DNA of 64,000 bases from Pavona decussata (lineage: Eukaryota): the NCBI GenBank assembly GCA_977016875.1, contig CDRNST010000096.1, positions 620,001 through 684,000 of the forward strand, read 5' to 3'. The position numbers were made by a program, and so were the translations under genes. Below, piece after piece: positions 2,207 through 63,551 of this stretch. Numbering within the stretch: the stretch's first letter is position 1; the number at the start of each line of letters is the position of its first letter. The notes beneath the pieces are model-generated. The model was not told the origin of the DNA. It ran no database searches and saw nothing but the letters and a program-made list of their open reading frames with translations.

Positions 2207-3130
2207 AAAAGATCCTTGCTGGGCCATGGGTAGGCAAAGTTTTACTCTTCTTTACAAGAACAAGATAGTCATTGTTCTCTTTTGTCAAACTGTTGAATCC
2301 TCCTAATGTCATGTGTGCTAGAGGGCCCGCCCTGTTAGCGTTATCAATAGAGATTTCAACTAGCAAAAAATCACGTACCAGGTGTACTGGGATTAAGTAA
2401 TGACCACGCTGTGGGCACCGCTTAGCTGGCCTAATAAGCAAATCGCATCTCTTGAAGCTTTGCTTCTTTCAAACTCACTGATTTGTTCAGGAGTTATTAG
2501 AGCTTCAAAATCCTCTTTCATCTTCTCCCAATGGCGCTTGGAGCGTTGCAGTCAATATGACGAGGACCATCGTGTGCCTTTATCTTTAAAAGCAATAACC
2601 TTCTCCTTCAAAATAGGTACGCCTGTGGCACCCGTTAAAGAGAATGAGAAAAAGTGGCGAAGTCTCTTTAAGTATGACTGGATGGTTTTGGGAGTGTACG
2701 TTTTGCTTGTTTTCCCCTCAAGAAACTTGTCATTTAGGAGGTGTTCATCGAACAGCGACAGCAATTCATGCTTCTCATCTATTGCATTCAAGACCTTGAA
2801 GACTTGCTTGGTATGCTGTCGGCTAGTCTTTTGATCCAGCTTCCCACCATCAGCCGATTGAAGCCACGCTTCAAAACTAACAAGCTCAGAAGGCATATCT
2901 TTGTGTGTTGTTTTAGCCGAGCTGTCATCGCAATCTCTTTCTTCTTTGCTGCTGATCAGCTCTACGTCAATAGAAGGGGATGGATGCTCCAATGGATGAT
3001 CATACGATACAGTAGGCCTTGGTCTTTCGTGATAAGGTTTTCGATGCGAATCCTTTACGGGAGCTCTTTTTTTTCCATGACCTCCTGGTAATCCTTAGAC
3101 CCTGGAATTAGATGGTGTACTCTATTCAAA
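2207..3130 (-). pseudogene. Tyrosine recombinase (Crypton-like) copy 1, truncated fragment
   Basis: ORFs 2552-2992 (AWLQSADGG..QSYL..LRHF..RWSSSY) and 2190-2441 (RDFLLVEISIDNANRAG..THGPARI) are collinear with copy 3. Cut at a TTAA (~2203) before the RK/H/Y motifs. Confidence 0.85.
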
Positions 3131-3291
3131 TGCACGCAGACATGTTCTTGCAGTAGTAATGGACTGGCCTGCATCGAAGCTTGTAAGTGCATGACAACTG
3201 CCATAACCCCAACAAGGCCTGTGATTCTGATTCAGACGACTACGATGATCTGCGAGTCAATTATTAGATTATTAGACAGGATGAGAGTATA

Positions 3292-3798
3292 TGTTGTTGC
3301 AAACGCGTTAACTCGTACACAAACCAAACAATTAATGACCAAAGCAAGTACGAAAGGTAAGGTAAGGTAACTGAAAAATAACATAAAATAACAGACATAA
3401 ATAAACTAACAATAAAAATGACAATGACAATGCGAATAGAAAACGACAAGCGAAATAAACGATGAATACTTACAAGACGAATGTGACGACAAGAAAAACA
3501 CTTAGAACTTGGAACTTGACTTAAAGGCTAGACTTAAAACGAAACTGAACTTAACTAGAACTAGAACGACTTACGCAATATGAGCAGCAACAACAAAACT
3601 AACAAGTAACCTATAGATATAACGTTATGCAAAATAAAACTAGCGAGTACGAAAACAACCTAAGAAAACAAAGAAGACTAATGAACGAGAAACTAAGTAC
3701 AAAGGGTAACGGAGTGAAAAAACAAGAATGCTGATGACCTATAGAAATACGTAATGCCGACATACAAAAGAACAAAAATCTAAATTTTCGTGCCTACG
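3292..3798 (-). repeat. 3' LTR of BEL/Pao element 1
   Basis: Diverged direct repeat of 7743-8266, with substitutions and a ~20-bp indel. Confidence 0.92.
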
Positions 3799-5982
3799 TT
3801 CCGGCCCCTAAATGGAAAGGCGTAAACTTTGGGTTTACATATATGTGAACTAATAGATAAACTAACACTAAAGAATTAAATGTCTCTTTAAATCTCTAAG
3901 ACTGGGAAAAAATGTCATATGTGCGGTAGATTTGGAAAAGACTTGACTTTCTATTCAATTAAAGTGTTCCTTCTGAATGTTCACAAGATTCCCAAAGGCA
4001 TAGCTTGGAGATGGGTCGAAGTAAAGTTGAATTCTTCGTCCGAACTTTCACATGACGGACCAACTGTTGCTTGTTGGGAAAAACTTCTGTGATACGACCA
4101 ATCAGCCACATATTCCTGGGCGTAGATTCATCAACGACGATAACGATATCCCCAATTGCAAAATTTCTTTAAGGTTTGAACCACTTCTGTCGTTGTTGTA
4201 GCAGAGGCAGATATTCTTTTTTCCAACGTTTCCAAAAAACGTCCGCCAAATATTGTACCTGTCGCCATCTTCTTCTTGGTAGGGTGTCATTTTTCTCAAA
4301 AAATACCAGGAGGAAGAGGCGTGTCTTGACGAAGAAGAAGCAAATGATTTGGTGTAAGAGGTTCCAAATCTCTTGGATCATTTGAGACTGTCGTTAAAGG
4401 TCTTCCATTGATGATACTTTCTGCTCCACACATCAGGGTCTGGAGGCTTTCATCATGGAGGTTCTGTTCCTTCACTAAGCCACCAATAATCTTTCGGGTC
4501 GATCTTAGCCTTTCCCACACACCACCATGATGAGAGGCCGATGGCGGATTGAAGATCCACGTAATTCCTTTTATGGAGAGGACTTTGGTGGATCGCAGCC
4601 TGGTTCTAGCTTTCGATTATAACACAGAGCTCCTTTTTGCCTGCAACGAAGTTTGTACCATTGTCAGAGCAAATTTCTTTCACTTGACCTCTTTGGGCGA
4701 TAAAATGCCTCAGAGCGAGAATAAAGGAATCAGTGTCCAATGAGCGGGATATTTCCAAGTGAACAGCTCGTAGGGCTAAGCAGGTGAAAATCACTCCATA
4801 GCGCTTCACTTGGCTCCTCTTTTGGCGTACAAGAAACGGGCCAAAATAGTCTACTCCTACGCAAGTGAAGGGAGGCTGGTCCGAGGTGTCTCTTGCAAGT
4901 GGTAGATCTGCCATCTTTTGTTCGCCTGAAGAGGCATGACGCCTTTTGCAACCAAAGCAGGAGGATAGTACGCTTCTTACAACAGAATTTGCGCGAATTA
5001 ACCAGAACTTTTCACGCAATAGGCCTAAGACGTATTCTCTTCCGGAATGACCGCTTTTCTCATGAAAATGGCTAACAAGGAGACGAACGTGATGAGAATC
5101 CCTCGGGATAATGATCTGATGCTTCGAATCCTCAGACAGGGTGGCTATCCTCAGTTGTCCGCCAACACGGAGGAGGCCCTGGACCATTATTGGATCTAAC
5201 CTAACGAGCGCACTTGATTTCTTGACGGACTTTCCTTTCTTTAAGGCTGCTATTTCTTCAGCAAAAGCGATTTTCTGGTTAAACTTGATGATCTCTTGTT
5301 CTCCAATCTCCAACTCTTGAAGTGTGAGCAATTTGCACTTGGACTCTCTAGGAGAACCATATTAGTTTTGTCTGGCTTCTCTTTTTCTCTTAAGAAATCT
5401 TCTTTGGCAGCGAAGACACAGCGATAAACTTTAGCAGTCTGAACCAAGACGAGAACTGCGCAACGATAGAAACATATCCGTCCAGAAAGTGACTGTGTCA
5501 ATGGGCATTTCCAATTCTTTCTTCAACATTTTGTTCAGGCGAATCGATACTGTAGCAGCTGCTAATTGCAATCTGGGGATAGCCGTCTGTTTCAGAGGAG
5601 CAGGGCGGGATTTCCCGATGAGAAAAGAACAATGAATTTGACCATCCGAGTTGATGAGGCGAAGATTAGAAACTGCTCCATATGCAATCTGAGAGGCATC
5701 GCAAAAGTGATGAATTTGGCTGCTAGTAATTCTTCCAAAGTCAGGGGGCTTGACATGTCTGTAGACTGAGAATTCGGAAAGCTTCGGTAACCCATGCCGC
5801 CAGGAACGCCATTGAGACGAGAAATTGTCAGGAATCTCATCGTCCCAAGCAAGGCCCTTTCTACACAAATCTTGGAGAAGTAGTTGGGCGGGTAAGATGA
5901 AAGGTACAGCCATTCCTAAAGGATCATATATTTAACTGGTGATGGATAGTATTCCACGCCTTGTACATGGTCGCTCCTTTAA

Positions 5983-6351
5983 GGGGAAGTATCACAAAAA
6001 TTTGCTGTCATTTCAAAACCCAAAAATGTTTGACTGTCAGCAGAAACAACGAAATAATTGTCAAATTTGTTAAAAATTATCACCCCAGTGCAATAAAACT
6101 GTCAATTAGTGCCTCTGGCCAGAGACAGGATAGACCGGTTTGGATTAAAACTTGAAAAATATTAGGCTAATGTTTTTCAAGTTCTCGCATTTTTGTTTCC
6201 AAAATGCACTAGAACACATCACAAGTTGTTTCTTTCAAAAATTGAGTTGATTTCGTTCCTCTCGTCATTCTGAAATTATTTGGCAGGTGATTGAAGTTCT
6301 TATTTCATCATTTTTAACAAAAGATATTAAAAACCCCATGATACTTCCCCT
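5983..6351. mobile_element. Kolobok-type MITE inserted in BEL element 1
   Basis: TIR GGGGAAGTATCA...TGATACTTCCCCT with TTAA on both sides. Removing it restores the BEL pol reading DKLGFKVNVKERPCTRRGILS. Confidence 0.85.
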
Positions 6352-7742
6352 TTAACGTTGACCTTGAAGCCAAGCTTGTCGTTCTCTACGCACCATGATA
6401 CGCCTAAGGCTCTCTCGGTGGGAAGAGCATCTTCGGCTAGGTCCAACTCTTTGGCTCTCTCCAAATTGCTCTACGTGCATAACTGTGGCATGCGGTCCAC
6501 TGCAGTGGTGGCAAGGTTTCCTCTTTTGACATCCTCTGGGTTGATAACCAGCTCTTAAGCAAGCAAAGCATAGCCTCTTTTTCATTACGAAATCAAAACA
6601 ATCTTGATTGGATGCTTTTGCGAAATCAGAACAATCGGACAAATGGTGGGAGGCATGACAGAAGAGACAACCTTTGGCAGTTTCAGCTGAAGCAAACTTG
6701 CTACCGGTTGACGAAGATACGGGACGTACTTGACTGTCAGAATTCTTTTCAGTAATGGTAGCGAGACTTAGTTTCTTTGAACCAGGCTTGTCATTTCTGG
6801 GATTTAACCTCTTCTCTTTGTTAACAGAGGCTTTCTTCTCCATGCAGGGTAACTTGCCGAGGATGGGATTGCCTAAGGATCGCGACTTATGCTCTACAAA
6901 ATTTGAAATGTCTTCAATACAGATCTCTCGCTGTTCCACATTCAGGACCCGATCAGCGGTTTCGCGTCATTTAGCTCGTATTCTTTCTCCAGCTTCAGCT
7001 CCTACCTCTTTAACTCCAACTCGTATTGTTGTCTTTTAAGATTCATCTCCGTCTCATGAAGTCGATGACGTTTTAAGGCAGGGGCTTTGGCTTGAATTTC
7101 AGCGATTTTTGCCGCTTCTTCAGCTCGAGCAGAAGATATTGAACTTGCTTTAGATGCTCTACTGAGGATGGAACCACACGAACTTTTATGTTTATGTTGC
7201 TCGTTAGGGATAACTTGAGAAGCACTGTCATCTGGAGTTATGGCCATCTCATGCAGCTTCACCTCTGTAATGCGTAACCAGTCATTAACGGTATCGCAAA
7301 AAAATCTTAAACTTGGTTCAATTTCACTAAAATAAGCGTTAGATTGTTCCTTATGAGCTTCGTCCACCAACTCGCGATGATATGCGTTCTGAGATTCGAC
7401 GAACTTTTGAAAGAGATCCGTTATCTCGGCTAGCTTGACCTTAATTGCTTCCAAATTGTTGACATCGTTCAGCAAGTCATCAATCTCCTTGTGTTTAGCC
7501 GTAATACTCGACAAAACACCTCCTCTTTTCTTTCTTAGAACTCGAAATCGCTCCACTCGAATAGCATCTGGATCCAGCGTTACGTTGAGTCTTCGTACAC
7601 GTGAACTTGAACAAACAGGCGGCGGCGTATCAGAATGTGCTGGACACTGGCTCCTTGGCGACGTACTTGAACGACTAACATGAGGTCTCGTTTGAGACAT
7701 GGCAACGAAAACCGACGGCAAACGAGATTCGTCTTTTACGAA

Positions 7743-8266
7743 TGTCGTCGCAAACGCGTTAACTCGTACACAAACCAAACATTTAATGATCAAAGCAAGT
7801 ACGAAAGGTAAGGTAAGGTAACTGAAAAATAACATAAAATAACAGACATAAATAAATTAACAATGAAAATGACAATGACAATGCAAATAGAAAACGACAA
7901 GCTAAATAAACGACGAATACTTAGAAGACAAATGTGACGACAAGAAAAACACTTAGAACTTGGAACTTGACTTAAAGGCTAGACTTAAAACGAAACTGAA
8001 CTTAACTAGAACTAGAACGACTTACGCAATATGAGCAGCAAAACTTACAAGTAACCTATAGATATAACATTATGCAAAATAAAACCAGTAAGTACGAAAA
8101 CAACCTAAGAAAACAAAGAAGACTAATGAACGAGAAACTAAGTACAAAGGGCAACGGAGTAAAAAAACTAATAAACGAGGAACAAAAATCAAGAACGCTA
8201 ATGACCTATAGAAATATGTAACGCCGATATACAAAACAACAAAAATCTAAATTTTTCGGGCCGACA
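7743..8266 (-). repeat. 5' LTR of BEL/Pao element 1
   Basis: TG...CA bounded copy of 3292-3798, followed by TSD GTATA. Confidence 0.92.
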
Positions 8267-10462: not shown

Positions 10463-10697
10463 GAGAGAGAGAGAGAGAGGTAGATTGAAGGGCACTTTTG
10501 TCACGAAAAATAGGGCACTTATGTTGCGTTAGGGAACTTTGGTCACGATAGGTAGGGCACCTTTGTAACCTCAGGGCACTTAGGTCACATTAGGGCAGTT
10601 TGACAACGTTGAGTAGGGCACCTTTGTCACGTTGGATAGGGCACTTTGCAACGTTGCATAGGGCTCCTTTATCACGTTGTATAACGCACTTTGTAAC
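10463..10697 (+). repeat. (GA)8 microsatellite plus left terminus of a YR element with 10 phased TAGGGCACTTT-type repeats
   Basis: AG|ATTGAAGGGCACTTTTGTCACG at 10484. Repeat cores start at 10489, 10512, 10531, 10554, 10573, 10592, 10615, 10638, 10660 and 10683 (19/23-bp spacing). The same terminus recurs at 55902. Confidence 0.85.
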
Positions 10698-11100
10698 ATT
10701 ACAGAATGCGTGGTGCCTCTGTCTGAAAATGTTGTCTATCAAGTAGATTGTCTTGAATCATGTTTCTTACAATTTATAGAGTAGTCTGAATTTTTAGGCA
10801 TATATGAGTTATATTTCGCAAAAGGTGTTTTTACCATGCTGTGCTACCTTTCCAAGTTTAAAAACCTCATAACTATGTTAAATTATTCTTGTTGCGTAAC
10901 ACACTTTGTAACGTTACAGAATGCGTGGTGCCTCTATCTGAAAATGTTGTCTGTCAAGTAGATTGTCTTGAATCATGTTTCTAACAATTTATAGAGGAGT
11001 CTGAATTTTTAGGCATATATGAGCTATATTTCGCAAAAGGTGTTTTTGGCACACTGCGCTACGCTAGTATTAAATACCTCATAACTATATTAAATTATTT
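10687..11100. repeat. ~215-bp tandem duplication
   Basis: CACTTTGTAAC(A/G)TTACAGAATGCGTGGTGCCTCT...AAATTATT occurs at 10687 and 10903. Confidence 0.9.
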
Positions 11101-12078
11101 TCGTGAACACAAAGTTTTTTGTTTAATGCAAAAACTTTAATTTTCGGTCTTTGAAAGTTCGGTATTTCGCGCGCTGTTCACGGATTACGAAGTTAAAACC
11201 CCGACCACCCACCTTCACTGCCAAAAAATTCTTAACTCCTCAAAAATTTTAGGTGTTAGTGTGTATCATTCATAACTATATATTTCTTTCAGGAAACTAC
11301 TAAACATGATTTTTAACTTTTCAGAACATTCAAGGCTTCATAACAAGCACTATTTGCGGCCAAATTTATGTCAAACTGCAATGCTACCATCCACGTAAAT
11401 TAAGGATGGATTCTACCTAAACATACTTTCTTAGTCGCTTAATATGGATTTCACGTTAATATCTCGTTCACGTATCAAGCAATTAAAAATCCCTAAGCTC
11501 ATCCAACAAAGCATTGTTGTGGGATATTTTGTAAATTTTAGGTGGATTTTTGGGTATATTTGGGAAGAGATAATTGTTCTCAAAGGATAAGTTAAATTGA
11601 GTGAGATAGGAAATATTGATGTTGGATATAATAGCATTTGAAGTTAGAAATTAGTGGGCGGACACCAAACTGCAGAGCCTCTTGTGGGGTGTCAACTGTC
11701 TGGTGGTGTGTCAAAACATTTTTTTCACATTTCAATTCCTTCTTTAAATTCCTAGATTTCACTCCAATTGAGGTAGAATTCCCCCCGTAATAAAAGGCAA
11801 TATTTTAAAGAGTTCTTCTTCACTGTTTAATGAACAAAACGTATATCTTCGCGGGACTGCAAAAATAGATTGATTTACAACAACAAGTGTTTAAATTAAA
11901 GACGAAGAAGTTCAATCAGTCATTACATCCAATCCACGTCAAGTATGACCGATATTTTTGAAATTAAATGGCGATTTATCGAATTTCCTTAGGTGGTCCT
12001 CAGTAATAACACATGTATGGTGTTAACATTTTTTTTAATTTTTGTTTTCACTTAATATGTGCTTTTCAGAAAGATTTC

Positions 12079-12737
12079 CTCAAGCAGTTTAAGGCCTGGG
12101 TTAAGGGCTTTTAAGAGGAAAAATGGTTTATTCGAGATAACTTTAACAAATTCAATGGCACTGAACTGAAATTTTGAAGATAAAAAGATCTTATTCTGAA
12201 AATTTGTAAGCATAATAAGTAGTGCTATAGATCACGTGACATGTCACGTGATCGTTTTTGTGAAAAAAGCAAAGATTTGACAGGTAGGCTACGGTTTTAA
12301 GAGAAAACATCAAACAAAAACGCGTTTGCTTAAATATCTCCATCACTTCACGTTTGGAATTATCGTCCATTGTTTTCCAGAAAAAAAGTATTAGGACAAA
12401 GGTCATTTTTTAGTTCACAATTCAACCTTTGATTGCTAATTTCTCCAATTTAAAAACTTGAGGACGGTCATTCCAAACGTAGAAAGTTAAATATTTAAAA
12501 TCTGCTTCAGCAACACTAATTCAGTTATTCATATAAAGAAAATTCGCTGCCATATCGCCGATTTACGAACTTTTCATTTTTTGGTCACGTGATCAAAATT
12601 ATATGTTAAGGCAAAAGAAAACATCAAGTTTAATATTCAGGAAAAATTTCATCCTGTTCTATGCTGACAAACCGAAGATATAGGGATCATTCATAATTTC
12701 TGAACACCCTTCAAACCCAGGCCTTAAACTGCTTGAG
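12079..12737. mobile_element. MITE (possibly EnSpm/CMC-like)
   Basis: 24-bp perfect TIR CTCAAGCAGTTTAAGGCCTGGGTT; possible 2-bp TSD TC. Confidence 0.75.
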
Positions 12738-13215
12738 TCGAGAGAAGTGTTCAAGAAGCCATTCAAATATCGAGCATTGCAAAGAGTTATTCCAATGTTC
12801 ATTTCACTTTATGGAATACTGATAACGCATGACGTAGATTCAGTCTGTAACTATCATAGACGTCAAAGTAATTTATAAATATAATTTTTTTTAAGAACCT
12901 AGTACTTATACCAACACAACTAACAATCAACTGCCAATGCCTAATGCATTTTAACACTGTTACGATGACTTTGTATGGAACGAAATTAAGTGGTCAACAA
13001 AAATATAAACTTAACGAAGTCTTTGTTTGACCGTTTGACTGTTGATCTGATTTAACCTTCTTCAAAGAAGGTCAAGTTTCCGTGTAGATAGTATTCTTTA
13101 AAGTGCACTTAACCCCAAAATACTATTTTTGCTACAACAAATCTTTGGACCCGTTCGAAACGTACTGCGCTTTTTTTTTCATCTTTATTCAATCCTGACT
13201 TTTTATAGGCTTTAA

Positions 13216-16200
13216 GTGCATCTGTCACAGAAAACCGACCACTTTTACAAAGAGCTATGAAAATCAAAATTTTAGATTCCAGCCATTCTTTGTGCAGTGA
13301 TAGTAGCATGTGTATTGATAACAAATATCATGAACGTTTGGCCAACAGCTCTTTCTTTGTCACAAAACTGGGGCAGGCTTAGAGACCCGTAATAAGTGGC
13401 AACTATTTTGCATAAAAATGGCGAAAATAGGGCAGTCTTGACATTGTTTCCCCAAGTTATGAGCTGGACTCAGGATCTTTTCTTGGTAATATATCAGAAA
13501 GGTATCGTATAGGTTAACAAATAATGCAATTAACATCGTGCCATCTCAAAGGGAAAAAAAGTTGTAGATCATAAAAGATGCCACCGTTTATTAGTTAATT
13601 TATAGAACTGTTTTTTTCCAATTTTCAACAGACTGGTACTCCTTGTTCCAGCAAGATTAAGCTTTCTTTTTTTAATAGCGTTTAAGGATATAAACCTAGC
13701 TACAAAAAACTGCCAAGAGATTAATGGGCAATTTTAAAGTGTTGGCCTTATGAGCTTTGACTTTTTCCCTCATCAAGGCCTTTTGAAGCTGAGGGTCACG
13801 AGACTTATCTTTCACTTCAAATATGTTATATTATGGGCCATAGCAAAAAGAGTTACAGACGTGGAAAGACTGTGACGATATGAGTAAAGTGTGCAAGTTT
13901 GAGACTCCCGACGTTTAAGAGCGAGTTTTGATGACGATCTTTGTATGGAAACGGTGGGCAGAGAAGGGCCTTAAATTGCCGTTATACGGATCACTTTTAC
14001 AACAGGGGTCTCAAGTGTGACCTGTTTATTTTATTTTGCCATGCTCTTACCATTTCTGTTGTTCTTTAAGTTGTAGGCCATTAGATGAAATTAGTACCAG
14101 AAACTAGGTCACGTGACTTCCAGCTGCCAATCACCATTTCAGAACTACGAATAGGGACTGGGCAAGAGTCTAATTTATGAACTTAACTATGTGAGGAAAT
14201 TTATTTCCATCGAAAAAAATGGTCAAATAATAATCTTACAGAGTTTTATGACGTTTTCCGTTGAAACTGTTTTAACATCCCAACCAAAACATACTTAATA
14301 ATCAGCACGAATACATTTAGTCTTTGGGGTGTTTTTTAATTCGTCACGATCCCGGAATTTTCCAAATTATTCCAAGTAAAATTCTTTTGCCTTGTATCTT
14401 TTGATTGCCTTGTTTTTTAAATCTTACCTACAGTTTCTTTTTAGAACATGTGTAAGTTATCTTAAAAATAGCTGCCTGTACATTTAAGAGAATTAAACCA
14501 ACATTTAGCGATTTCCTTGTTTGTTAATACAAGTACAGCTATTCAGTACGTTTGCTAAAGCCTCGTTGTATTGAGCTTTACGACGCTTAAAGTTATCAGT
14601 TTCAATATCAAGAGAGTCGCATATGTTTTTCAGTTCAGCAATGTTGGCCCCTCGTCTTGGTTTACACTTCTTAAAATGTGTGATTTCCATTCTATTTTCT
14701 CCTTACTGTCATTTAACAGGAATTGAAGCTCATCCCTTTCATCACTGACCATGCTGCTCTTACAAACATTTCCAATGGCCTCATCTAAGGAGTCGAACAG
14801 ATGTCGTAGTTCCTCGCACCTATCACACTCAATTGAGTGACTATGAGTACAGCACTCCCTAAATTCTTCTTTCTTAGGGTCACTTAGTGCAAAATATCGG
14901 CAATGGTCTGGTGAGACAGACGGACTATCGTTTGTTGAATCATGCACGACATGTGTACTGTAATCTTCCTTTAAGTAACGCTTACAGGATAAAGTCATTG
15001 AACGGAGCCTTTGCGCCTCACAGTCGGACATCCCTGCATCATAGAGCCTGTCGATAACTTGGTCTAAATTTTCGAATGCCTCAGATCCATCTGCCGTGTA
15101 ATTATCCAGACCCTGAAGACTTTTTCTTGTAGAAGCTGGACAGACTTCAAGGATTCTTAACAGAGTTCTTTCACTGGCAGGCTTGAACTCGGTTTCATCA
15201 CAGATCTTTAAGTACTGGGCGATAATTCGCGCTGGTATCATTTTGCTTATTGGTTTGGGAACAAGTAGCTCTCCTCCACTTTGAAGTTTAATTTTAGAAG
15301 TGCCATATGCTGTGTCTTGTGAGATCACATCACTTGTTATGAACCTTAAGAAGTGCTCAACTTGAGTTTCATTGAGAGAGAACCTGTAGATTGCAGCTGC
15401 TGGTGTGGCAACACCTGGATCGTGCTGAATACAATGCTTCCTTGCCTCCTTGATAAGAAAATCCGTCAAGCCAGGAATTAGTTCTTTCAGTTTACTTCTC
15501 TTAAAATTTCGGGCAAACAACGATAGAATCTCCTTTCTAGAGTTTGAAGACTGTGCATTGTTATAAGCATCAACGAGATTCCGTAAGGTGCTGTCAGACA
15601 GGGTGCTAGGGACAACTTCGCCATCTTCATTATGGTTCTTGTCGTTGCTACTAAGACCCTCAATCGAACTGTCTTTCACATAATCCCACAAATGTTCTCC
15701 TTGGCCTGGGGCAATCGATTCCAAGACAGGTCTTATTCCTTGCTTTGCAAACCACGCATAGTGGTGTTTAGTACGAGGATGCACGTCTTTCCAATCTTCC
15801 ATCAGCACAGAGTCTAAATCTCTAAATGGCTGATTTATTGCGCACACCTGGTGCAGTTTAGAAACGTGGATGTTGTAGGCTATTTTTGCCCTAGCTGGTG
15901 TAAGTGGCTGAGTGTAATCTTCATCACTGATTAAGGACTCTTCTAAAATAGAAGGGCTACCAAACGCCTCAAATGGAATAGGAAATATTTTACGGGGTGG
16001 GTTGCTGTCACTTTCCATCTTTTCCGTGCTCAGAAACTGCTTCAGATGACAAGCATGCTTCTCTCGACATTGTCGGCACACACCTAAAAAATAACGGCCA
16101 CATACATACTTTTATTGCTTTTATTAAACAAAAAGATTCATTTCTTGTTTAGCTGAAGGGCATAAGTGAGCTTAGACTACAACACTCGTCTTCTTTTTGT

Positions 16201-50061: not shown

Positions 50062-50290
50062 TTTCTTTTACACAACGGAAGAAAACAAGAAACTCCGTAA
50101 CGTCACAAAGAGCGAATTGACAATGCCACGAATTCGAACGGCCTATTTAGCGCACTTCCACCCCAATTAGAACCCTAAAATGTCCAGTGATGTACTAAAT
50201 AGATGTTGCATTTTCCAAATTTAGGTCAACATCATTTGTACGTTCCTCCACATCCGAGAAAAGGGCCTGGATGTTCACCCCTAACTCAGA

Positions 50291-50554
50291 CAACTAGTTG
50301 CAAAAAGACTTGAGACACTGTAACATATTTGGCCTTAAATGAAGTTGCCGTGATCACGTGCTTTCCATTCCCCCTCCCCCCCTTATCAATGTTGTTAGCA
50401 ATGCAAGATGACGCTCAAAATTTGGAGGAAGAACTTTGTATGGAGGGGAGGGAGGGGGGTACTGTCATGTCTCACAGATTTATGAGCGGCAGCAATTTGA
50501 AGTGGTAAAGGGCGATTTTTGGTTGGAGTGTCTCACTATTTTTGCAACTGGTTG
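50291..50554. mobile_element. Tc1/mariner-type MITE
   Basis: TIR CAAC(T/C)AGTTGCAAAAA..TGAGACACT / AGTGTCTCA..TTTTTGCAACTGGTTG|TA. Confidence 0.75.
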
Positions 50555-51211
50555 TAGCTTACAACTGTTACATTGGAAATCTCGCTAACTTTTATAAACA
50601 TCAAGATCTAGTAATGTTCCTACTCTTACTGGAAGCAGATGTTGATTTAACTTAGTAGAGGGTCATGATGGTACCGGTATGTTTGTAGTACAAATAAAAA
50701 AAAAACGTACCTGCGATGTACGGTGGCTAACCATAGGCCATTTTTCATTGCATTACTAGCCCTGTAGTTCAAAAAGCTAAATCTTGAATCTAGTATGACC
50801 TAAGAAATCTAGGAATCTTTAGGTGGAATTAAGCTTGCAATTCATCTTTCGCTCGTATTTTAAACGATTGGTGATTTGCTTCAAGGTGAACATCTGTAGT
50901 ATCTCTCTTCCCTCTTCCTCTTTGCTTAGTAACCCGTGAACAACATTTTGGGAAATGACGCCTGATTTCACCACTTCACCACAAAACTGGAGTAAATACT
51001 TTCTGTGCTCATCAGTAAACATATTCTTACTCACATAGCTCGAGTTTGAGGGAGGGGCCATAGATGCGCTGCTGTCATCGCGTGAAAAGTACCGACACAT
51101 CTTGTTGTCTAAAGTGTCAATTTCTTTGGGCAATTCAGGAGAGGGCTGGTCGTCAGCCATCTCTGACATTTTGTGGCTGGTGTTGTTGCTGAAGCGCCAC
51201 TCACTAAGAAT

Positions 51212-52186
51212 AAATGATTTATTCCTACAAATCAAAACTGTACAATTACATATGTATGCAGACGATGGTCAACTCTACACCGCCGATATGGATCTGGTAC
51301 GGTGCGTCTCTCGCATGAGGTAAGCTCAGCAAATGCCTTGTACGAGATCAATGGAATGATAGCAAATCCCAGCAAACACCAAGGGATGATACTAGGAAAA
51401 ACTGACCATCAGTTTAATTTCTCAGTAAATGACTCAATGTAACTTTTCGGCGTTACAATTGATAAAGATCCTACATTTAAGCAACATGTGTCCTCTATAT
51501 GTAACAATCAGTTTAGCGTTATGACAAGGTTTGGCAAACTGATGTCTACTGAGACCATGCTCCGTCTTTATAAGGCATTTATACTTCCTCACTTTTATTA
51601 TTGTTCTATGGTGTGGCATTTCTCTAGTAAACAAGATTCTAATAAACTGGACCTATTAAACAAACGTATTCTTCGATTTATTTTCAAGGATTTTAACTCT
51701 GAGTACAATAATTTACTTAAAAAGGCAGGAACTGCAAACTTTAAGGACAAGCGTTTACAAAACATAATTCTAACTATTTTTAAATGTCTTCATTTTAAAA
51801 GATATGTTTCATTTACGCTCTAGCACCTATTTTTTAAGAGGACATAGTATAATCTGTTTGCCCAAACCACTGACCACTTCTTATGGTATCAATTCCTTTA
51901 GTTACTTGGCAGCAACATCGTGGAATTCTCTTCCTGACCATTACTGCACTATTTCTGATTTTACTTCTTTTCAACGACTGATATCTACTGGGAACAATAA
52001 TTTACTTAAAAGGGCAGGAACTGCAAACCTTTCTACATCATGATAATTTACAAGTTAGTTGTCTAGGTAGTAAGTTATCTTATTTGTTATATAGAATTAA
52101 CTTTTTATTATAATTATTTATCAATGTAGTTGGCTCGAAGATATTAGCACTTCAGTGCTACACTGTAAATTCGAGGGTAAATAAAT

Positions 52187-52218
<32 letters not shown>
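51212..52218 (+). mobile_element. 5'-truncated CR1/L2-type LINE with (ATTG)n tail
   Basis: INDL..LHMYADD, LYKAFILPHF.YC.VW, GINSFSY..WNSLP. AATAAA followed by an ATTG microsatellite at 52190-52218. Confidence 0.85.
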
Positions 52219-52219
<1 letters not shown>

Positions 52220-52284
52220 CTTGTCATACACCTTTCTCGAGTCTAGAAAACGGAGCTTAGGATTTCCTTGAATTTTGTCTTTAA

Positions 52285-52889
52285 AGTGCCCCTAACCCTT
52301 CAATTTGTTTTCTTTTGGTAGATTTCCATATGTGTGAAAAACTCATTTTCGAAATTTTTTTTTAGAAATATTGAATCCTTTTTATTTTACGAGCACTAAA
52401 AGTTACTGAAATTTTTAAATTTTTGCGCGCTTTCAGCCCCGCTGGACAAATGTTTGTCTCGTGGGCTCATTAGGAACGAGCCAATGAGAAGCGTCTGATG
52501 TTTGACACTTTCTTAGCTGTGACGTAAGAACAGGACACCAGAAGGATTCAGAAGGAATCTTATGCACGCTGATTCCTTTCTCTACATTTCGAGAGTTGCT
52601 GCATCCCAAAACCACACATTCTTTAACCATTTTCTCTGTTTACAATTGAAGCATTACCCCGAATCTTCAGATATTTTTGCACGATGTCCTTTTCTTACGT
52701 CACGCTCCATATTTGGCCGAGTGGGGGACTAATGCGAACGATAGGTGAAAATATTGACAAGACTGCCTTCACTTCTAGTGCTCGTAAAAAGAAAAAGATT
52801 CAATATTTCTCAAAAATTGTTTCGAAAATGAGTTCTTGAAAGATATGGAAATCTACCAAAAGAAAACAAATTGAAGGGTTAGGGGCACT
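52285..52889 (-). mobile_element. Kolobok non-autonomous element with THAP-domain stub
   Basis: TTAA TSD; first 46 bp of the TIR perfect (AGTGCCCCTAACCCTTCAATTTG...), imperfect to ~120 bp. ORF 52433-52630 begins MVKECVVLGCSN..GISVHKIP (THAP start). Confidence 0.9.
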
Positions 52890-55865
52890 TTAACGACTGT
52901 CATACTTTCCAATTTCGCTTTAATTTTCTCTGCAAAGAGATCTTTTAAGGCAATAACATCTTCTTTCCAGACTATACGTGCCTTGGATCCTACAGCACCT
53001 GAATCCTCACGGTCAATTTCCGGAACGTCGTCATCACAACTTGTGCTGGTGACTTGTGTATGTTGTACCGTTTTGTTTGCTTCAGATCTCATAATGTGAG
53101 GAAGCTTACTTGCCGCTTGTAGACACGCCTCTTGCTTCTCCTTTAGTCGATAACATGTCCAAGCGGTGGTCTCCTTATGCGCCATTAGATCAGCCAAATC
53201 TGATTTCATTTCTTCATGCATATGCTAATTGTGCACATTTGTGAAGGCAGACTTTCAAAATAAAGTTAAATCCAACACCTGGCTTCGTACTTCATTGATG
53301 AACTGACTTTCAAATATGTGAACAAACTTGATGGTGATAACACTGCGTGCGCTAGGCCATGAGTATCAGCAGTCTTATGGCTTTTGACACGTATCACGAA
53401 GCTACCCTTCGCTTTTTTTGCTTGACAGTATTCGTCAAGGGTCATATTGGATAACACACCAGATCGATGTGCATTTGCAATCATGAAATTTAGGAGAAGA
53501 AAATCTCTGACGAGAATGAAGATGGATTGATTAATTTGCAAAAATGCTCTCCACTTGAGTTGTTCTATATATGAAATAGTGCTCCATGCTGACTCCTGCG
53601 TTCAAACTCATTGACCACCTCAGGAGTTTCAAGGTTGACGAGATCGGTGCTCATCTTTCCTAGATGCCTCCGTTTACTGTCCTTTTTGTATGGCATAGAC
53701 CAAAGGCGTGCTTTCTCTCTGGCCCATTTGGCAGACAATAGCAGAACTGAAAACCACGCTGCTAGATTTCTCAGCAACCATGCACGTACGAACAGAAATG
53801 CCTTAAACTGAGAAGATAAGCTTTCACAGTTTCAGCTGTATACTTCTTTTCGGCGTCCTTCAAAAATGAGTCCCGAATTAGAGTCTTATCAAACAGTGAG
53901 CTCTGCTGCTTTTGGGGTCAATTATTTCCAGAATACGCAACACCTGTGACGCATGTTGCTTAGATAACTTTTTATCCTTTCTACACTTTTATCCTTTCTA
54001 CCACGAGGCTGCTTTTGGGTCCTATCATTTGAGACCTGAGAGTACAATCTGTCATGTGCAGTGTCACCAGTGAAAATTGACACCTTTGGAAAACAGTTAA
54101 ATCAACACTTCATAAAACGTGATGCTAATATTTTGAAAACGCGTTTTTGCTGTCATTATCCACACATTTGATGACAATTTGTTTGAAGCCTCCAGATTTG
54201 AAATACAACGAATGGCCAGAACACATGTTTATTTACCTGTTCTTTTCTTGATGTCTTCTCAAAAGCGGCTTCAAGTATGCCTCATGAAATGTCAGTCCAT
54301 GACGTCAGTTCAATGTTATGACCGTCTGTTACTGACACTATGCCAAAAATATCTCACTTTTCATTTATTGTTAATCATTGTCGACCAACACCAGCTTTTA
54401 CAAACTTTGAAGTACATCAAAACTATAATTTTCATAATCGTTGTCAGGAAAACACCCTTTTCTTCCTGGCTTGGTTTGAATAGCATTTAATTTTTATCAT
54501 TTGTCTGGGTTGTATGTATTGTTAAAATGCCTTGCACAGCAAAGGGTATTATTAAATTCTTATATGGTGTAAAGACATTTCGATTGACGTCTTTTGCTTG
54601 CTAAAGGTAACGATAGATTGTTAGGGGCTTAATCTAGAATAATGTAGGAGACGTGTTTGATTGCCCGTCTGATTAGCTCTTATTAAATACCGGATATAAA
54701 AGGGCGGAAAAAGAGCTGTAATATAGTTTTTTCAAGTTAAAAAGCTTTGAAGCTCAAGTAAATTTTTTCTGCCCACACGTACATCAACAATTGCGTCAAG
54801 GTTGGGACCGTTGTGAAAGCACTCTAAAACTTTTCCGAAAAAGCAGGATCAGCGATAAATTGCGATTAACTTCATAAAAACAAAATTAGGATTAACCACC
54901 TCCATGTAATAGTAGTGAGCAAAATTAGACTTTTCTGCAAAATCTTTTGAAGACGTTAATCCTTCTGTTTTTAAATAGGGCACTTTTGTCACGCGGACTA
55001 CCGGTAGATGCAAAAAGGCCGAGAACAGAAGAGTAATTTGTTTCTTGCAGTTTAATAAGATTTTAAAGCTTGAGTAATATCTCAGCTCTTAGAGTACTTT
55101 AAGAATTGCGTCAAGTTTGGGACCGTTGCAAAAGTGCCCAAAAATGTTTTCGAAAGAATAAGCCAGTAAATCTGCCATAAAAAGCCCACAAATTAATTTG
55201 GAATTAACGGTGTCCATGTAAATATATTGGGACAATTTGAATTTTTTTGAAAAGCGTTCGAAGACACACTGATTCTTCCGTTTTTTGCTCCGTTTCTAAA
55301 TAGGGCACTTTTGTAACTCAGACTAACGGTAGAAGCCCACAATAAAAAAAGAAATTGAAAATAAAATAATGAATGGCTATTTCCTACAAAGTTTGATTTG
55401 GAAAATAAGGCTGGAGTGTTGCTGTAGATGTTTCAACCCTTTTGATCTCGAAAGTTTGCCTATTTTAAAAATTATCGACCAAAGCGTCAAAATTCATGTT
55501 GCGTTGATTTTTGATGTCAAGAAAAGGTCACAAGTCTATGAAGATGCATATGAACTCGTGCGATTTTTGACTCAAAATTTTTGTGAAGAGATTAAATTTT
55601 GGAAAGCGAGAGAAAGCAAAGAAAAAGTCTAAAAGACTGGATATCATGTTAGCCACGGAAAAACGAACGAAAATTGTGTTAATTTGGGCTTTCAAGGCGT
55701 AGGGCACTTTTGCTGCCGGTATGGAAGAAGAAAAAATCGTATGTAATTTAACTTCAATGGTGAGCAGGTATGGTTATAATACATTGAATTTTCTTCATTT
55801 ATTCGTCAGGAAAATGTCAACCAACGCATTTTGTTGAAGTTATAAACGAGAGACTTGAAAGTGAT

Positions 55866-55917
55866 AAAAGTGCCCGACTTTCAATATTTAGAGAGAGAGA
55901 GATTGAAGGGGACTTTT
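55866..55917. other. Right-end/left-end junction of two YR units (att-site-like)
   Basis: AAAAGTGCCC-gact-TTCAAT-attt-(AG)6-ATTGAA-GGGGACTTTT: inverted repeats around an AG spacer. Confidence 0.75.
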
Positions 55918-58900
55918 GTAACGCCAAATCAGGCACTTATGTAATGTTAGGGCACTTATGTAGCGTTCGAGCACTTTCCTTATTAAGTCTTTAGCATGCT
56001 GATGGACACTTATTAAACTTTCGGTGAGCCATGTTTTACTTGTCAAAATTGATCTTATGAACTTATCTTGCGTGTTTACAAATTATGAAGCGTAGCATTC
56101 AACAAAAGGTCCACGTATACTTAAAGTACCGGTGTGCTGTCGTGTTTACAACATTTGTAACTAGTTTGGGACACTAGTTGTTACTATTACCCGTAAATAT
56201 AGGTCCAATTTATAAACAGGTTCGCTTTACATATAGGGACGTTTTTACAATGACCATCCGTAACGCCGCTATGTGTAAAGTGCCCCTATATTTAAGGTAA
56301 CATGAACTAGGGGCTCCCTGATCTAAAAAAAAAAAAAGCAGTCGTGGTTTTCAATATTTAGACTGGTGGTACTCTTTCCGAATTTAAGCTGCTTAAATAG
56401 ATTAATACCCATGGCTTATGTGTGTGAAACCACTGATTTATTTTCCCGAGTCGCCTATATATATATTGTAAGAAAACCGCATGTTGCCTCCATACGTATG
56501 TAAAGTACGTAACCTAAAAGCTATTCTGGCTACTACACTTGATGTGCTTTCGTAACTATCGCACATAATTAATGTTTCCTGTTTGCTACTGAAGAGAAGA
56601 GATTTTGCCAAAAAAAACCCTAGGACTATACCTAACCCTATCACATCTCTAAATCGATAATCATGAAGAATGTCTTTGCATTTGTGTACATAAATATTAA
56701 GTGACACAAGTTGCATTTAAAAAATTAAGGCGCCTGCATTTATGGTCCTGAATCCCAAGTGCTGGCATACATATGAGCTGGCCCCACCTTTGGCCATTCG
56801 TGTTTTTTTAATAATGTCGTGAATGCCCCACGGTGGGGCCAGCTCACCACACACCAAAATATGGACCGAGACTCGCATTACAAAAGTACGGAGAGGCCTT
56901 GAATTCTAGGCAAAGGGATTAAGCATGCTTGGGTTGGAGTCGGCAAGGCTCAGGTTAACTTAAATCAAATCAAAATCGTCCTTATATGTAAAGCCCCTTT
57001 GTGTTAAGCCCCATTCGCGAATCACTAGTCTACTTTCCTTTAAATCATGAAACCACGTATATTTTTAGACCATTTCCCTGATCACGTATTTACTATACAT
57101 TCTTGAAGAAAGTCTCAATATCTCAGGCGAGCTCACAGTAACGCGTAGGGCCAGAGAGAACATGCCTCCATACAAGATTAATCTTTGGCTTTATGATCTA
57201 GGACATTTGTCAAGTTTGGTTTACTACCGTAAATTGATTTTGAGTACGCAATTTTTCTTTAGCGGTTTTCATGTGTCACGCTATGGTTCTGTTTGTATCA
57301 CACGTCACTCTGAACATATAACCCTAACCTGCTATCACCTGCTAGAAAAAGGACGCCTGTCCACTGGTTAGCTTTACCCCTTTACCATCCTGCATCTCAC
57401 CTAACATCACTAACCGCAGGAAATGGTTTTCATTTACGAGCCGGCAAATTCAAGGTTAAGAAGTTAAATCAATTCCCAGTTTCAAAACACAATTCTATAC
57501 CGCCAAAACAATGCCTCCTTTGAGGGTCCGCATCCTGCAGTTATATCTTTGTGACATCCACATTCAAACAAACTTGCGGTGAAAGATTGCATGACAATCC
57601 CAAACAGCTTCTGCGTAGGTTACCTCGAGTGGGGGATTTAAGTCCACATGGAAATTTTTCCACATTCACCCATTACTCCCCATCAGACGTGATTAGTGGA
57701 TTTAAGATAGAATAATCCAATGCCCAAGATAGAACAAAAAAAACCTCCAATAGCGTTACCCAATCCATGCTATTGTGCGATTATTGCCACTCAATTTGAT
57801 GATAATCGTTTTTTGGTATTTAGTAGTAAATTAACATCTTATTTAAATACTTGCCTTCATCAACAGTTCATTTAAAATACTTTCATAAACATCTCATTTA
57901 TGGCAAGAAGCCCAATTTCTTTTCTAAAATAGTTAAACATCTCTTCATCAATGTTTCGTTTAAAATATTTTCAAAATGAAACAAATAAATATCTCATAGT
58001 AGAAAGTCCAACTTATTTAAAATACTTTCTTTCATGAACGCTTCATTGAAATTATTTTAAAAAACATGTCATTTATAGCAAAAAACCTATCTTATCAGAA
58101 ATAATTTCAGAAACATCTCATTTACAGCAAGGAACCTAAGCGTGTGACCACTTTAATTAAATAAGTCTAGTTCTTTTATGCATGCAGACCATCTGAACAT
58201 AAGGCAGGGACAGCTAATTTTGGTTTATGATTGGATGGCACGCCCACACAAAAGAATGAGAGTTAACTAAAGGTCACCCTCTTTGGTCCCTAAATTGCTG
58301 TAAAATACTAATACAATTTAAACTGTTCACAATGCTACAAAAAAATGTGGCCATACACGTAAAAGAGAAACATCTTCTAAATGGGCCAGGTAACCTTGGC
58401 TAGCCCAGTTTCCTATATCTCCCCTCGATAAAATTTATTTTGTACAAATTTTGTTGTGTTCATATAAGGAGGAAAACTAGCGCAGTTGCCGAGTAACTGG
58501 GCTGGAAATTTTACCATATGAACACTCCAGCAAGGTTATTAGGATGACAGTTATTGTTCAACATAAACATGCATTTCTACAAAATAATGGTAAGCCAGTG
58601 TTAGATTACAGTGAACTCTCTCTAACTCTCCCAACTAGTTCCATAAGGAATGTATGGCCAATGAAAATAATTTTTATCTTGACATTAGGACTTACTACAA
58701 CATCAAATTCTCCCAACTAGTCCTATAAGGAATGTACTGCCAAGATCAAAAAACCTCAATCAATGTTTTCAGTTTCGATTCTTCCTCAAGATTACATCAT
58801 TTGTTTAAATTTGTATCAGAGTGAAGACAATCTAAGGTTTGGTTGACTTGCATTTACATACTAACCCTTCCTCTATACTAGCCTATTTCTTGCTGAGGAA

Positions 58901-58927
58901 TGGCAAAATAAAGCATGTTAGCTTCCT

Positions 58928-60339: not shown

Positions 60340-60580
60340 CTTTTTTTTGTATTTTTTTTTTAATTTTTTCAGTCACCGTCCAGTTTTTTTTTTTTTTTTT
60401 TTTTTGTATTTTTTTTTTTGCCCAGTCACCGTCCAGGGTTTTTTTTTTTTTATTTTTTTTTCCAGTCACCGGCCAGTCTTTTTTTTTCTATTTTTTTCAG
60501 TCACCGTCCAGGTTTTGTTTTGTTATTTTTCCAGTCACCATCCAGGCTTCTTTTAACAACTTTTGTTTTAAGTCACTGTT
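60340..60580. repeat. CAGTCACCGTCCAG units separated by poly-T tracts
   Basis: 5 clear copies plus 1 degenerate copy, directly 3' of the YR5 stop codon. Confidence 0.85.
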
Positions 60581-63551
60581 CAATTTGTCTTGCGCTTGAA
60601 CAAGTTCTTGACCTTTTCGTAGGTTCGGTGGACTCCATTTCGTGTCACAATATCTTTCAGGTCCTCAGTGGTTTTCAAGATATCCAGTATGATTGCCTTA
60701 CATGGACATCTTGTGTGTGCTTGAAAGGCTTCCTCTAAGGCACTTTCGTCCTGTCTTGACCAGGACTGGCGTTTACTAGAAACAGTGAAGATTGTAGATG
60801 TGGTCTCAACCCAATCACTTGTTTGGGCTGTAGCATCAGCGTCAGGGAGTGACTCCAAGTTATCTTTCATATGTTTCTTTTGAAGATATTTCACTCGTTT
60901 ATAGACCTTATTTACAATGATGTCATCCTCTACGAATTCAATCAGGCTTGCGCACTCACTCATCTGGCGCTTTGTTTCGACAATTGAGAGTGGCGCATTT
61001 TGGGTGATGATGTGACCGAAGAGAAGATCAATGGCGTCTAACTGCTCAGAGAGACCTTTCCACTCGGGCACTTTGTTGGGCGAGGATGCTTTCTGTGGTG
61101 AAGGTGTCTTTGTTGGCAGTGTGTCCTTCAGGCCAATGTTGCTGGTTAAGACTTCATGTCCTTTTGCGGCCATGTCGCCGAGATTTTGCATCATGTAATA
61201 AGTTTCCGCTGTTTTGGTTGAGTGGCACATTAGCCTATGTGCACTTGCCTTAGCAGCAGGATCTGCCTGGCTCAGCTGCGACGCATGCATCTTCCTAAGT
61301 CGTGTACTGGTTACATTTTCCTTACCCGTTGCCTTACGCCACCATTCCATGATTCGTTTCCCGATCGTGCCTGGGTTGAATGCCGTCCCCGAGTCGGTGA
61401 CAAAGAGTGCTTCTTCGTCTTTCTTGGCAAACAGTGGGCGTACTTTCTGGACATAGACGTCTAAATTAGATTTTAAATTCTTTGACAAGGTCAAAGGGGC
61501 AGGGCCGGCTTTGCTATTGCTATTCTTATGCCTACTGACATACATGATAAATTTCTCTTGCCTGGCCTCTAGTCGTTGGAAATCTCGTAGGCGCGCAGTC
61601 TCGAACGGACCTGGCAATTAAAAAGTCCCTTATCACAAGGAATTCTTTTCGGCTAGGCTTGTAAGTTTGTGCTTTCATTAAATATGTGCTGGCTGTCTTT
61701 GCAATTGCTGAATCAACCATTGAGCTGGTGACTGCTGGATTAACAGCATTGACTTGATCTTCAAGGATCTGCTCCCACCGGTCGTGCGCATAAAGTTGAT
61801 TAACAGATGTACCCATAGCCACGAATCGAGGTATCACTGCTGTGATTCTGTCGATTGTGTTCTGATGTAACTTGGGGAATCCCTTCACCTTGTGTTGGTG
61901 GTAATCAACAACAAACTCCAAGAAGCGCACCAGTGATCGCAGGGCTGCTCTAATAGTGCCTGGTCGGGACTTTTTTGCATCTGAAGAGAGGCTTTGCCCA
62001 GGAATTCCACACTTCCAGACCACCGTTAGAGATCACACACTCGAGGGTACTGTCTTGGCTGTCGATACTGTCGTGGATTCTTCGCACATTCTGCGCATGG
62101 AGAATTGCGTCCCCTTCCTTCTTACACCCTCCTATGATGTGTTGGAGATGACTGTAATATTTGATGATCAGCTCATCGATCAAGGACCCAGCCTTCCCTT
62201 CCCTGTAATACTCTTTCCATGTGGAAAAGTCAGCCTCGTCATCGCTTTCACTCGACTCATCTTCCTCATAGTCGGAATCACTGCTTCTCTCATCCTCTTC
62301 GTCTTCACTGTCATCAACCATTTTCTCTTCTCCAGAGCCTTCCTCACTCTTTTCTTCATCACTGCCATCCTCTTCTTCACTCTTGCTGGAGTCTCCTTGA
62401 TCATTAGCATCACTTCCATCAGCACTTGCATCATCATGGTCTGGCTCCGGTTCTTCACTTGCTACATCGTCATGGTCTGCCTCTGGTTCTTTCCTTGCAT
62501 GAGCAGTAGTCATAAATGATTTAAGGCCTTTTAGAGGAGTTGCTGGTATTGTGTTAGGGTTAGGCTCGAAATCCTCATCGGATGATTCGGACGGGAGAAG
62601 TTCCTCTGCAAGCAGCTCCAGAGGACTCTTTTTGGGACCCTTTTCTTCGTCGTCACTGTCAGATTCTTGTTCCACTTGTTTTAAGCGCTTGTATGACTTG
62701 GGGCTGGGAAGAAATGAGCCTTTCCGCTTTTCATGAATTATTTTCGTGTCCCACAACATCTCTGAGGTCCTCCCATAGAATGGCCGAGCCAACCTTAGGA
62801 CCATCTGATACTCATCACTGTCCTTTGCTAGTCCATGGACTTTTCTTAGGTGTTTTGATAAGTACAAGACAACGCTGTCACATTTAGGGCAGATCTCCTT
62901 GACACGTAGGTAGACACGATTCTCTCCACCTTTAGTTTTGGTCTTGAATCCGCCACCCTTGATCTTATTCCCGTGCCTTGCCATCTCCATCAACGGTTTG
63001 ATTCTGATTTCTGGAAGAAATTCGTTTTTGTTCACGTGTAACGCTTTCAGGTGTCTGGAAAGGTTACACACCGTTTTTTGGCAGATCGGGCAAACTCGAC
63101 TTGCGTAGTGCTTCTCTTTCGCGACTTTGGCTGTTTGTGTTTTCGTACCCGTTTTTTTCATTTGGGTTGTTTTTTTGGCATTTTTGTCAGAAGAACCAGC
63201 AACCTCTTCAACAACTCTAACAGAAGGTCTAGCAACCTCTTCTACAACTCTAACAGAAGGTCCAGCAACCTCTTCTACAACTGTAACAGAAGGTCCAGCA
63301 ACATCATCAACAACCCTAACAGGAGGTTCAGCAACCTTATCAACAACTCTAGCAACAGAAGGCCCAACAACATCATCAACAACCTCGGTTACATTCTTAT
63401 CTGTCGCACTTATAACAGCAGGCGTAGCAGAAACCTCATAACAAACAACAGTAGACACTTCATCATCATCATCTGCTTTGGCAGCATCGCCACTAGGCCC
63501 TGACTGATCTTCACCTATATCTAATCGCAGCGAGACTTTCATCTCATCCAT
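60580..63551 (-). pseudogene. Tyrosine recombinase copy 5 (divergent subfamily, intronless, two frameshifts)
   Basis: CPICQ..RHL..LH and CPKC..KHLRKVH fingers, acidic tract, GG.KK..H..NVRR, RDFLIA, RHKN..GPA, TRLRKMH, LMCHSTKTAETYY, C-terminal Myb-like repeat WSRQDE. Frame changes near 61985 and 61612. Confidence 0.9.
63190..63385 (-). repeat. 33-bp coding minisatellite (VVEEVAGPSVR-like, ~6 units)
   Basis: Repeated 11-aa unit near the start of the YR5 ORF. Confidence 0.9.

Follow-up and report, generated by a model that had tools for sequence, protein, structure and literature searches.

Contig C96 of the 602-Mb Pavona decussata genome carries, within a 64-kb stretch (C96:620001-684000, hereafter the window; other contigs are named C8, C49, C67 and so on), five homologous genes for tyrosine recombinases (YRs), all on the minus strand and all broken, and the question raised by this locus is how five divergent genes came to lie in one orientation at one place. 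The genes represent five different transposon lineages and are not parts of one unit. We hold with good confidence that the locus is a head-to-tail train of single-gene YR transposons from different families, inserted serially into one (GA)n tract, together with a nested element of a telomere-repeat type; the cluster likely grew by repeated insertion into one short repeat, not by gene duplication. A first-pass annotation of the window, made from its letters, had described five co-oriented, divergent YR genes and supposed that several related families had converged at the locus. Both statements were borne out, the nearest relatives of copies 2 and 4 lying on other contigs at 91-96% nucleotide identity. 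That annotation had not seen the element ends, the GA and TTAGGG flanks, a sixth element (element X) or the continuation of the row past the window, and it named no cause for the convergence; the cause proposed here is a common polar microsatellite target.

Searches within the genome gave at least 60 matches to the core of copy 2 and at least 32 to the core of copy 5, and 54 YR loci were analysed. Even if 300 loci were evenly spread, five per 64 kb would occur with P ~3e-10 per window, so that homologues are too rare for the cluster to be mere background, a possibility which the first-pass annotation had itself raised. Co-oriented clusters hold 20 of the 48 YR loci outside C96, and one opposed pair was seen, on C219 (hand count). 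A quick tree search of 50 of the 54 loci, with four short ones left out and with long branches, grouped copies 2, 4 and 5 with copies on other contigs, which is not the locus-specific clade expected of local duplication, and copy 1 with copy 3 and the C8 family. The relationships read earlier from the letters (copy 1 like copy 3, copy 2 like copy 4, copy 5 most distant) agree with core identities of 60% for copies 1 and 3, 40% for copies 2 and 4, and 16-21% for copy 5 against the others; copies 2 and 3 share 41% and copies 1 and 2 share 45%, and all figures involving copy 4 are lowered by its frameshifts.

The structure model of an uninterrupted relative from C8 (mean predicted local distance difference test score, pLDDT, 76) contained two ordered finger modules, a SAM-like domain with a catalytic core, and two C-terminal helical domains. 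Foldseek matched this model to XerA, XerH, Cre and lambda Int (best E 2e-5); against the PDB there were 42 matches at E<=0.001, and all 36 of the best listed were YRs. The modelled core-binding (SAM-like) and catalytic fold is that of tyrosine recombinases; Pfam PF00589 scored below cut-off in 5 of 7 long open reading frames (ORFs). Among 191 homologues the catalytic residues were conserved at 96-99% where aligned: Arg in 175/182, Lys in 174/179, the second Arg in 163/165, His in 161/162 and Tyr in 150/152. At the position of the HxxR His, 165 homologues had Thr 128 times, Asn 23, Ala 6 and Ser 5, with Lys after the Arg in 159. The sole match in a sequence search of the PDB was XerA, a weak one (E 0.45), and its alignment placed the homologues' Thr on the HxxR His. 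The TxxRK motif that results had been ascribed to all five copies, but it is intact only in copies 3 (TILRK) and 5 (TRLRK), which have two frameshifts each. Copies 2 and 4 have a stop codon at the Arg codon of the motif, and copy 1, which corresponds only to residues 124-439 of a 761-aa uninterrupted relative (52-62% identity), ends before it and also lacks the second His, the Tyr and both C-terminal repeats. The two CPx2-4C..H..H fingers reported earlier were found in copies 3 and 5; copy 2 has one match to the pattern and a second, similar motif in the same ORF, copy 1 has a remnant, and copy 4 has none. Acidic tracts and two C-terminal helical repeats were seen in the better copies, as described before, and the repeats were modelled confidently as two helical domains. 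Their earlier label, "double Myb", is a fair lead from the models as regards two helical repeats, with the Myb identity left in a tie: repeat 1 matched a homeodomain best (Z 6.7, root-mean-square deviation 3.6, 59 residues aligned), Myb/TRF-type structures followed at Z 5.0-6.1, no structural match reached Z>=8, and the best matches of repeat 2 were FF domains (Z 5.6).

The protein family comprises 1841 clusters at 50% identity. Its named members are from the stony corals Montipora, Desmophyllum and Porites, the ESM Atlas matches were unnamed eukaryote clusters, mainly of molluscs and chordates, and the best 50 BFVD matches listed were distant integrases only, none of them labelled as nimavirus. 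Dispersed copies with 99% identity on C129 and C50 point to recent mobility.

Each of copies 2-5 marks a separate DNA transposon, and the same units occur alone on other contigs. Fourteen elements could be bounded, with lengths of 4.7-12.6 kb, and their long sense-strand ORFs (>=150 aa) were the YR gene or pieces of it. A single long ORF, or its broken pieces, was present in 11 of 12 bounded YR elements; in the twelfth and in two non-autonomous elements, ORFs of >=150 aa were absent. No second long sense-strand ORF that could encode a reverse transcriptase or RNase H was found in the bounded elements, and the reverse transcriptase ORFs of the window sit in separate inserts which are missing from the relatives. 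Likewise, no capsid, polymerase or other viral gene was linked to a YR in these one-gene elements, and none of the seven long ORFs gave a Pfam match to DUF3504 or GCR1_C at E<=0.05. Most bounded elements have terminal inverted repeats that are imperfect and ~25 bp long, frequently with 3-4 additional bases in the 5' copy, and family-specific arm repeats are clustered at the 3' end (10489-10697, 47840-47957 and 58923-59342 in the window). In DNA searches with three window segments (8266-22714, 33780-53000 and 52000-64000), the homology of the relatives stopped at (GA)n tracts, which the element ends abut in fixed polarity.

The association with GA repeats was followed at loci chosen by their YR gene alone. 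Within 13 kb, the YR sense strand carried (TC)6 or longer at 11 of 15 such clade-A loci outside C96, and (GA) at none of the 15. All 11 positive loci include a tract of at least 10 units, and (GA)10+ runs start only 879 times in the genome, giving a chance expectation of 0.037 per locus (P 2e-13); no run was found in the control, 140 kb away from YR genes. Clade B showed the GA repeat in opposite polarity at 7 of 9 loci, one of them ambiguous, and a third GA family had the tract at 3/3 loci, while further clades were associated with (ATC)n (3/3) and (ATCC)n (1/1). Some tracts hold two elements: head-to-tail pairs of mixed families occur at least on C49, C6, C8 and C33, and pairs of one family on C162 and C308. 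The trains of C49 and C162 lie in the same host repeat, with matching flanks on both sides, and consist of different families. By hand count, 8 of ~32 GA-bound sites outside C96 are doubly occupied, to be set against the 879 run starts.

GA tracts at element ends have 70-170 units at many loci and only 5-8 at the old junctions of C96; long tracts may be preferred, or tracts may grow upon insertion and then shrink. The outer flanks of the tracts at C67:3130207, C354:368567, C81:106866, C127:653493 and 52190 of the window have in common that they end in a signal resembling TAAATAAA together with (TCAT)n or (ATTG)n. This looks like the tail of a long or short interspersed nuclear element (LINE or SINE), and such tails may seed GA targets.

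On the plus strand the row reads (GA)8 at 10463, element 2, element 3, a stretch of N, element 4, (GA)6 at 55891 and element X. Element X resumes beyond the nested element 5 at C96:685993, has a YR remnant at C96:686.8-687.7 kb and reaches its 5' end at C96:694131. The row then continues, to ~38 kb past the window, with a GA-rich spacer (C96:694132), a non-autonomous element of the C8 family, remnants of one further family and (GA)5 at C96:722201, so that six GA-type elements extend over ~92 kb. The copies of element 2 on C195, C49, C144 and C6 (92-96% identity) are bordered by GA; element 3 has a non-autonomous derivative on C81 (91-96%) with (GA)76 and (GA)59-83 at its ends; and for element 4 the copies on C162 and C382 (90-94%) have (GA)n directly at the 5' end. 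In the segment shared by element 2 and the element-3 derivative, the diagnostic sites are element-2-like in 29 of 30 cases up to 37984 and C81-like in 8 of 9 from 37990 to 38115, and six more sites at the extreme edge are element-2-like owing to a small deletion in C81. From these sites we infer that a crossover near 37990 likely deleted the 5' end of element 2, of which the final ~480 bp are lost, a GA spacer and the 3' end of element 3. A further GA spacer would belong under the N stretch, judging only from the relatives on C81 and C162. The GA-bounded derivative at C81:107-113 kb contains 1.2 kb of element-2 DNA between 53-bp direct repeats, an exchange of sequence between families.

Features of the window and of the adjoining part of C96 (positions are those of the window unless C96 is given).
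Feature	Position	Strand	Remarks
YR copy 1 fragment	2193..3132 (approximate)	-	remainder of finger 2, SAM-like domain and the first Arg and Lys motifs; catalytic C-terminal half missing
BEL/Pao-like retrotransposon with long terminal repeats (LTRs)	3291..8265	-	abuts copy 1 on its 5' side; old, with 89.6% identity between the LTRs (530 bp)
Mutator-like element, truncated	8887-10471		Pfam PF20700, E 0.0014; 94% to copies on C2 and C25
(GA)8 tract	10463..10478	+	3' end of element 2, left edge of row
Element 2	10479..38171	-	YR copy 2 20258-22714, frameshifted; 3' inverted repeat and subterminal arm repeats 10479-10700
BEL/Pao-like LTR retrotransposon with nested RTE-like LINE	22715..33779	-	in 5' part of YR copy 2; LTRs 447/447 identical, recent
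Shared segment, element 2 / element-3 derivative	36973..38171		1.2 kb
Element 3	38172..47691	-	YR copy 3 39454-41688; visible 5' terminal sequence reaches N stretch
N stretch	47692..47833		element 3 5' end / element 4 3' end
Element 4	47834..55890	-	YR copy 4 ~50822-54100, heavily broken; arm repeats 47840-47957; complete 5' inverted repeat
(GA)6 spacer	55891..55902	+	joins element 4 5' end directly to element X 3' end
Element X, sixth YR element, 3' part	55903..58918	-	86-91% to element at C67:3153 kb
Element 5	58919 to C96:685992	-	YR copy 5 60583-63623; 7.07 kb; nested in element X

The remaining contents of the window are two LTR elements, a LINE, a mariner, the Mutator-like piece and miniature inverted-repeat transposable elements (MITEs); the BEL/Pao-like class of the LTR elements at 3291-8265 and 22715-33779 and the RTE-like class of the LINE are suggested by ORF motifs. 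Element 2 is interrupted at 12079-12737, 13210-19677 and 22715-33779, and in its relatives the MITE, the 6.5-kb insert or the LTR element is missing, the sequence being continuous at the site of the last. The 6.5-kb insert (13210-19677; 90-98% to C314, C79 and C29) belongs to an unclassified transposon family, and its ORF, 14633-16111, had no convincing Pfam match. This ORF and a distant remnant at 679-1518 had been considered as a shared partner downstream of copies 1 and 2, which was rejected because 13210-19677 is a separate insert missing from the relatives of element 2. A short plus-strand ORF in the 5' part of element 2 (34988-35266) presumably resembles the GIY-YIG end of a Penelope-like element, with no Pfam support. 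Element 4 is interrupted by a Tc1/mariner element (48662-50555; Pfam DDE_3) and at 51212-52217 and 52277-52897. The Tc1/mariner is 99-100% identical to many copies and forms long tandem arrays at C246:56-122 kb and C192:796-831 kb, with periods of ~4.1 and 2.5 kb. The Mutator-like element ends at the first GA tract, so that a deletion probably removed whatever joined copy 1 to the row; neither the ends nor the catalytic half of copy 1 were found in C96:600-631 kb.

Element 5 differs from the others in its site. Its left boundary falls directly after TAG and its right boundary between CCTAA and TTAGGG (C96:685992), and both ends correspond to the termini of elements that lie within long (TTAGGG)n on C315 and C743 and in TTAGGG-spaced trains on C67 and C195. 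The paralogue of element X on C67 is continuous at this site and has there only CAGGTAAGG and no TTAGGG, so that element 5 likely inserted at a near-match in X, taking TAG and TTAGGG along from the donor site; alternatively, a small difference between the two X lineages may account for the discrepancy. An interstitial train exceeding that of the window was seen at C195:3250-3405 kb: YR genes or remnants of the telomere-type clade and a sister clade, at least nine in all and in one orientation, are spaced by TTAGGG tracts, with a tandem repeat of ~5.5 kb period in between.

These observations could be explained by the following course of events. The recombinase would bind the element ends and excise a circle with an end-(GA)n-end junction, which would recombine into a chromosomal (GA)n, the polarity of the repeat strand setting the orientation. 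Each insertion would leave a tract on both sides, so that the scarce target is renewed and the next GA-type element lands flush. Since long GA tracts are scarce in this genome, sites would be reused. The clade of element 5 would act likewise in (TTAGGG)n, and later LTR, LINE and DDE transposon insertions, with one deletion between neighbours, would have broken the five genes. Excision as a circle and site-specific reintegration are taken over from the Crypton model, as given in the parts of PMC3212892 and PMC9977147 used.

Several observations weigh against this course of events or limit the evidence for it. Only two GA junctions, at 10463 and 55891, can be read directly in the window; the junction of elements 2 and 3 has no GA and needs a deletion, that of elements 3 and 4 lies under the N stretch, and copy 1, having lost both ends, shows no visible link to the row. 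Tracts were absent from the DNA fetched at four of the 15 clade-A loci (C382:1534k, C45 and two on C326) and at two of the nine clade-B loci, and one copy of element 4 on C382 has no GA at its 3' end. The tallies of 75 GA/TC tracts in the 1.6 Mb fetched (element ends on both sides of 9, 8 of them outside C96, on one side of 54 and on neither side of 12) and of 89 end signatures (76 abutting GA, none TC) are partly circular, as that DNA was enriched by the choice of loci, the signatures were drawn from junctions, and some loci came from a pattern that demands GA (23 distinct ends; a match overlapping the N stretch was left out of all counts). The CCCTAA-type repeats found on the expected strand at 9 of 10 loci of the telomere clade were scored with a loose pattern, and these loci are not independent, five of them lying in the C195 cluster and those of C315 and C743 being near-identical. 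Finally, no circles, no empty allele of this locus and no activity were seen; in contigs of three of the four runs compared with element 5 there is a joint that skips it, and this joint was rejected as the empty allele because it carries the letters of the C67 paralogue.

A bolder version, which we put forward tentatively, is that the elements prefer the junction beside a resident element and use its arm as half an attachment site, giving integron-like mixed trains, swaps of sequence inside them and repeated switches of target within one genome, among (GA)n in both polarities, (ATC)n, (ATCC)n and (TTAGGG)n. If true, the family would form a set of naturally occurring animal integrases that differ in the repeat they recognize.

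Of the other ways in which such a row could arise, it is improbable that dispersed elements were brought together only once they had inserted, through ectopic recombination at GA tracts or at segments they share, or that the row arrived as a concatemer. A crossover between neighbours is visible at 36973-38171, and the same-family pairs on C162 and C308 could have arisen in this way. However, the trains of C49 and C162 keep their matching host flanks, as expected of insertion and not of exchange between loci, the members of the row are unequally decayed and vary in how closely they match their relatives (86-96% identity), and their order of families recurs at no other locus fetched. It is likewise improbable that YR elements simply piled up in a gene-free transposon graveyard. 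The LTR, LINE, mariner, Mutator-like and MITE pieces in the window speak for it, as do the non-GA site of element 5 and the presence of GA-type and TTAGGG-type elements within 30 kb on C67, and weak selection probably helped the row to lengthen; as the main cause, such piling up cannot give base-exact end-(GA)n-end joins or a single polarity. Very improbable is a single large composite element or endogenous virus with several recombinases, a reading that draws on endogenous nimaviruses, which enter telomere repeats using C2H2 and SAM YRs (as described in the part of PMC10871703 used here). The units of copies 2, 3, 4 and X are found separately elsewhere with their own ends, the bounded elements have no second long sense-strand ORF, and the other long ORFs of the window are genes of retrotransposons and DDE transposons or belong to the one unclassified insert. 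Local duplication and divergence of one ancestral gene is scarcely credible. Copies 1 and 3 do fall in one four-member clade, and the searches brought up no close relative of copy 1 in the genome; yet the identity between copies 1 and 3 (60%) does not exceed what they share with the C8 family (58-61%), and copies 2, 4 and 5 have their kin on other contigs.

The five genes of the window are themselves dead. The proposed train of serially inserted elements explains a pattern that annotators would take as a gene cluster. Cryptons that target microsatellites have hardly been described beyond a database note, and the papers searched give no account of their ends, targets or mechanism. In this genome the ends can be placed exactly, the target is polar, several families retain uninterrupted ORFs, and sister clades have other targets, telomere repeats among them. 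Two questions thereby become testable: how an animal YR that lacks the customary catalytic His recognizes a repeat, and which of its domains determines the target. In the literature searched, which did not extend to Repbase Reports or subscription papers, neither mixed Crypton trains nor a Crypton that targets TTAGGG were described, and several target switches within one genome were not found in print.

In attachment sites of the lambda type, two binding sites in inverted orientation enclose a short core and arm repeats lie nearby, an arrangement that the element ends recall. The bacterial YRs (XerA, XerH, Cre, lambda Int, Tn1549 Int) have the core-binding and catalytic fold in common with the elements, at 11-15% identity, whereas the core here would be a long dinucleotide or telomeric repeat. 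DIRS, Ngaro and VIPER elements are set apart by reverse transcriptase and RNase H, Polinton-like viruses and nimaviruses by linked viral genes, and CryptonA and CryptonF by DUF3504 or GCR1_C, none of which was found here. The telomere YRs of nimaviruses share the layout of C2H2 finger, SAM-like domain and YR, the telomere-type repeats and possible concatemers spanning the tract, but by description they belong to crustacean viral genomes of 280-400 kb and not to one-gene elements of 5-13 kb (PMC10871703, in the part used). CryptonA, I, F and S are, like the present elements, YR-only DNA transposons with non-autonomous derivatives and a proposed circular intermediate (Kojima & Jurka 2011, PMC3212892). 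The portion of that paper used here reports neither terminal repeats nor a C-terminal domain for animal Cryptons, a description of CryptonA and CryptonI which does not fit elements with imperfect inverted ends and two C-terminal helical domains. The Thr at the position of the HxxR His is another difference from these four groups. The closest likeness is to CryptonV, given by name only in the part of PMC5753468 used. According to the corresponding part of PMC8869645, microsatellites are the specific insertion sites of some CryptonV families; a Repbase report about target-specific cnidarian Cryptons is cited there (Kapitonov & Jurka 2012, Repbase Reports 12:2034). Like these, the present elements are YR-only DNA transposons with a microsatellite target, and their named homologues come from stony corals: the YR was the sole protein found in the long sense-strand ORFs of the 14 bounded elements, with no reverse transcriptase, and insertion was specific and of fixed polarity, as given above for clade A. 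Mixed-family trains, a TTAGGG clade and inverted repeats with arm arrays go unmentioned in the CryptonV descriptions in those parts. Compared by description, the elements of this genome appear to work like CryptonV.

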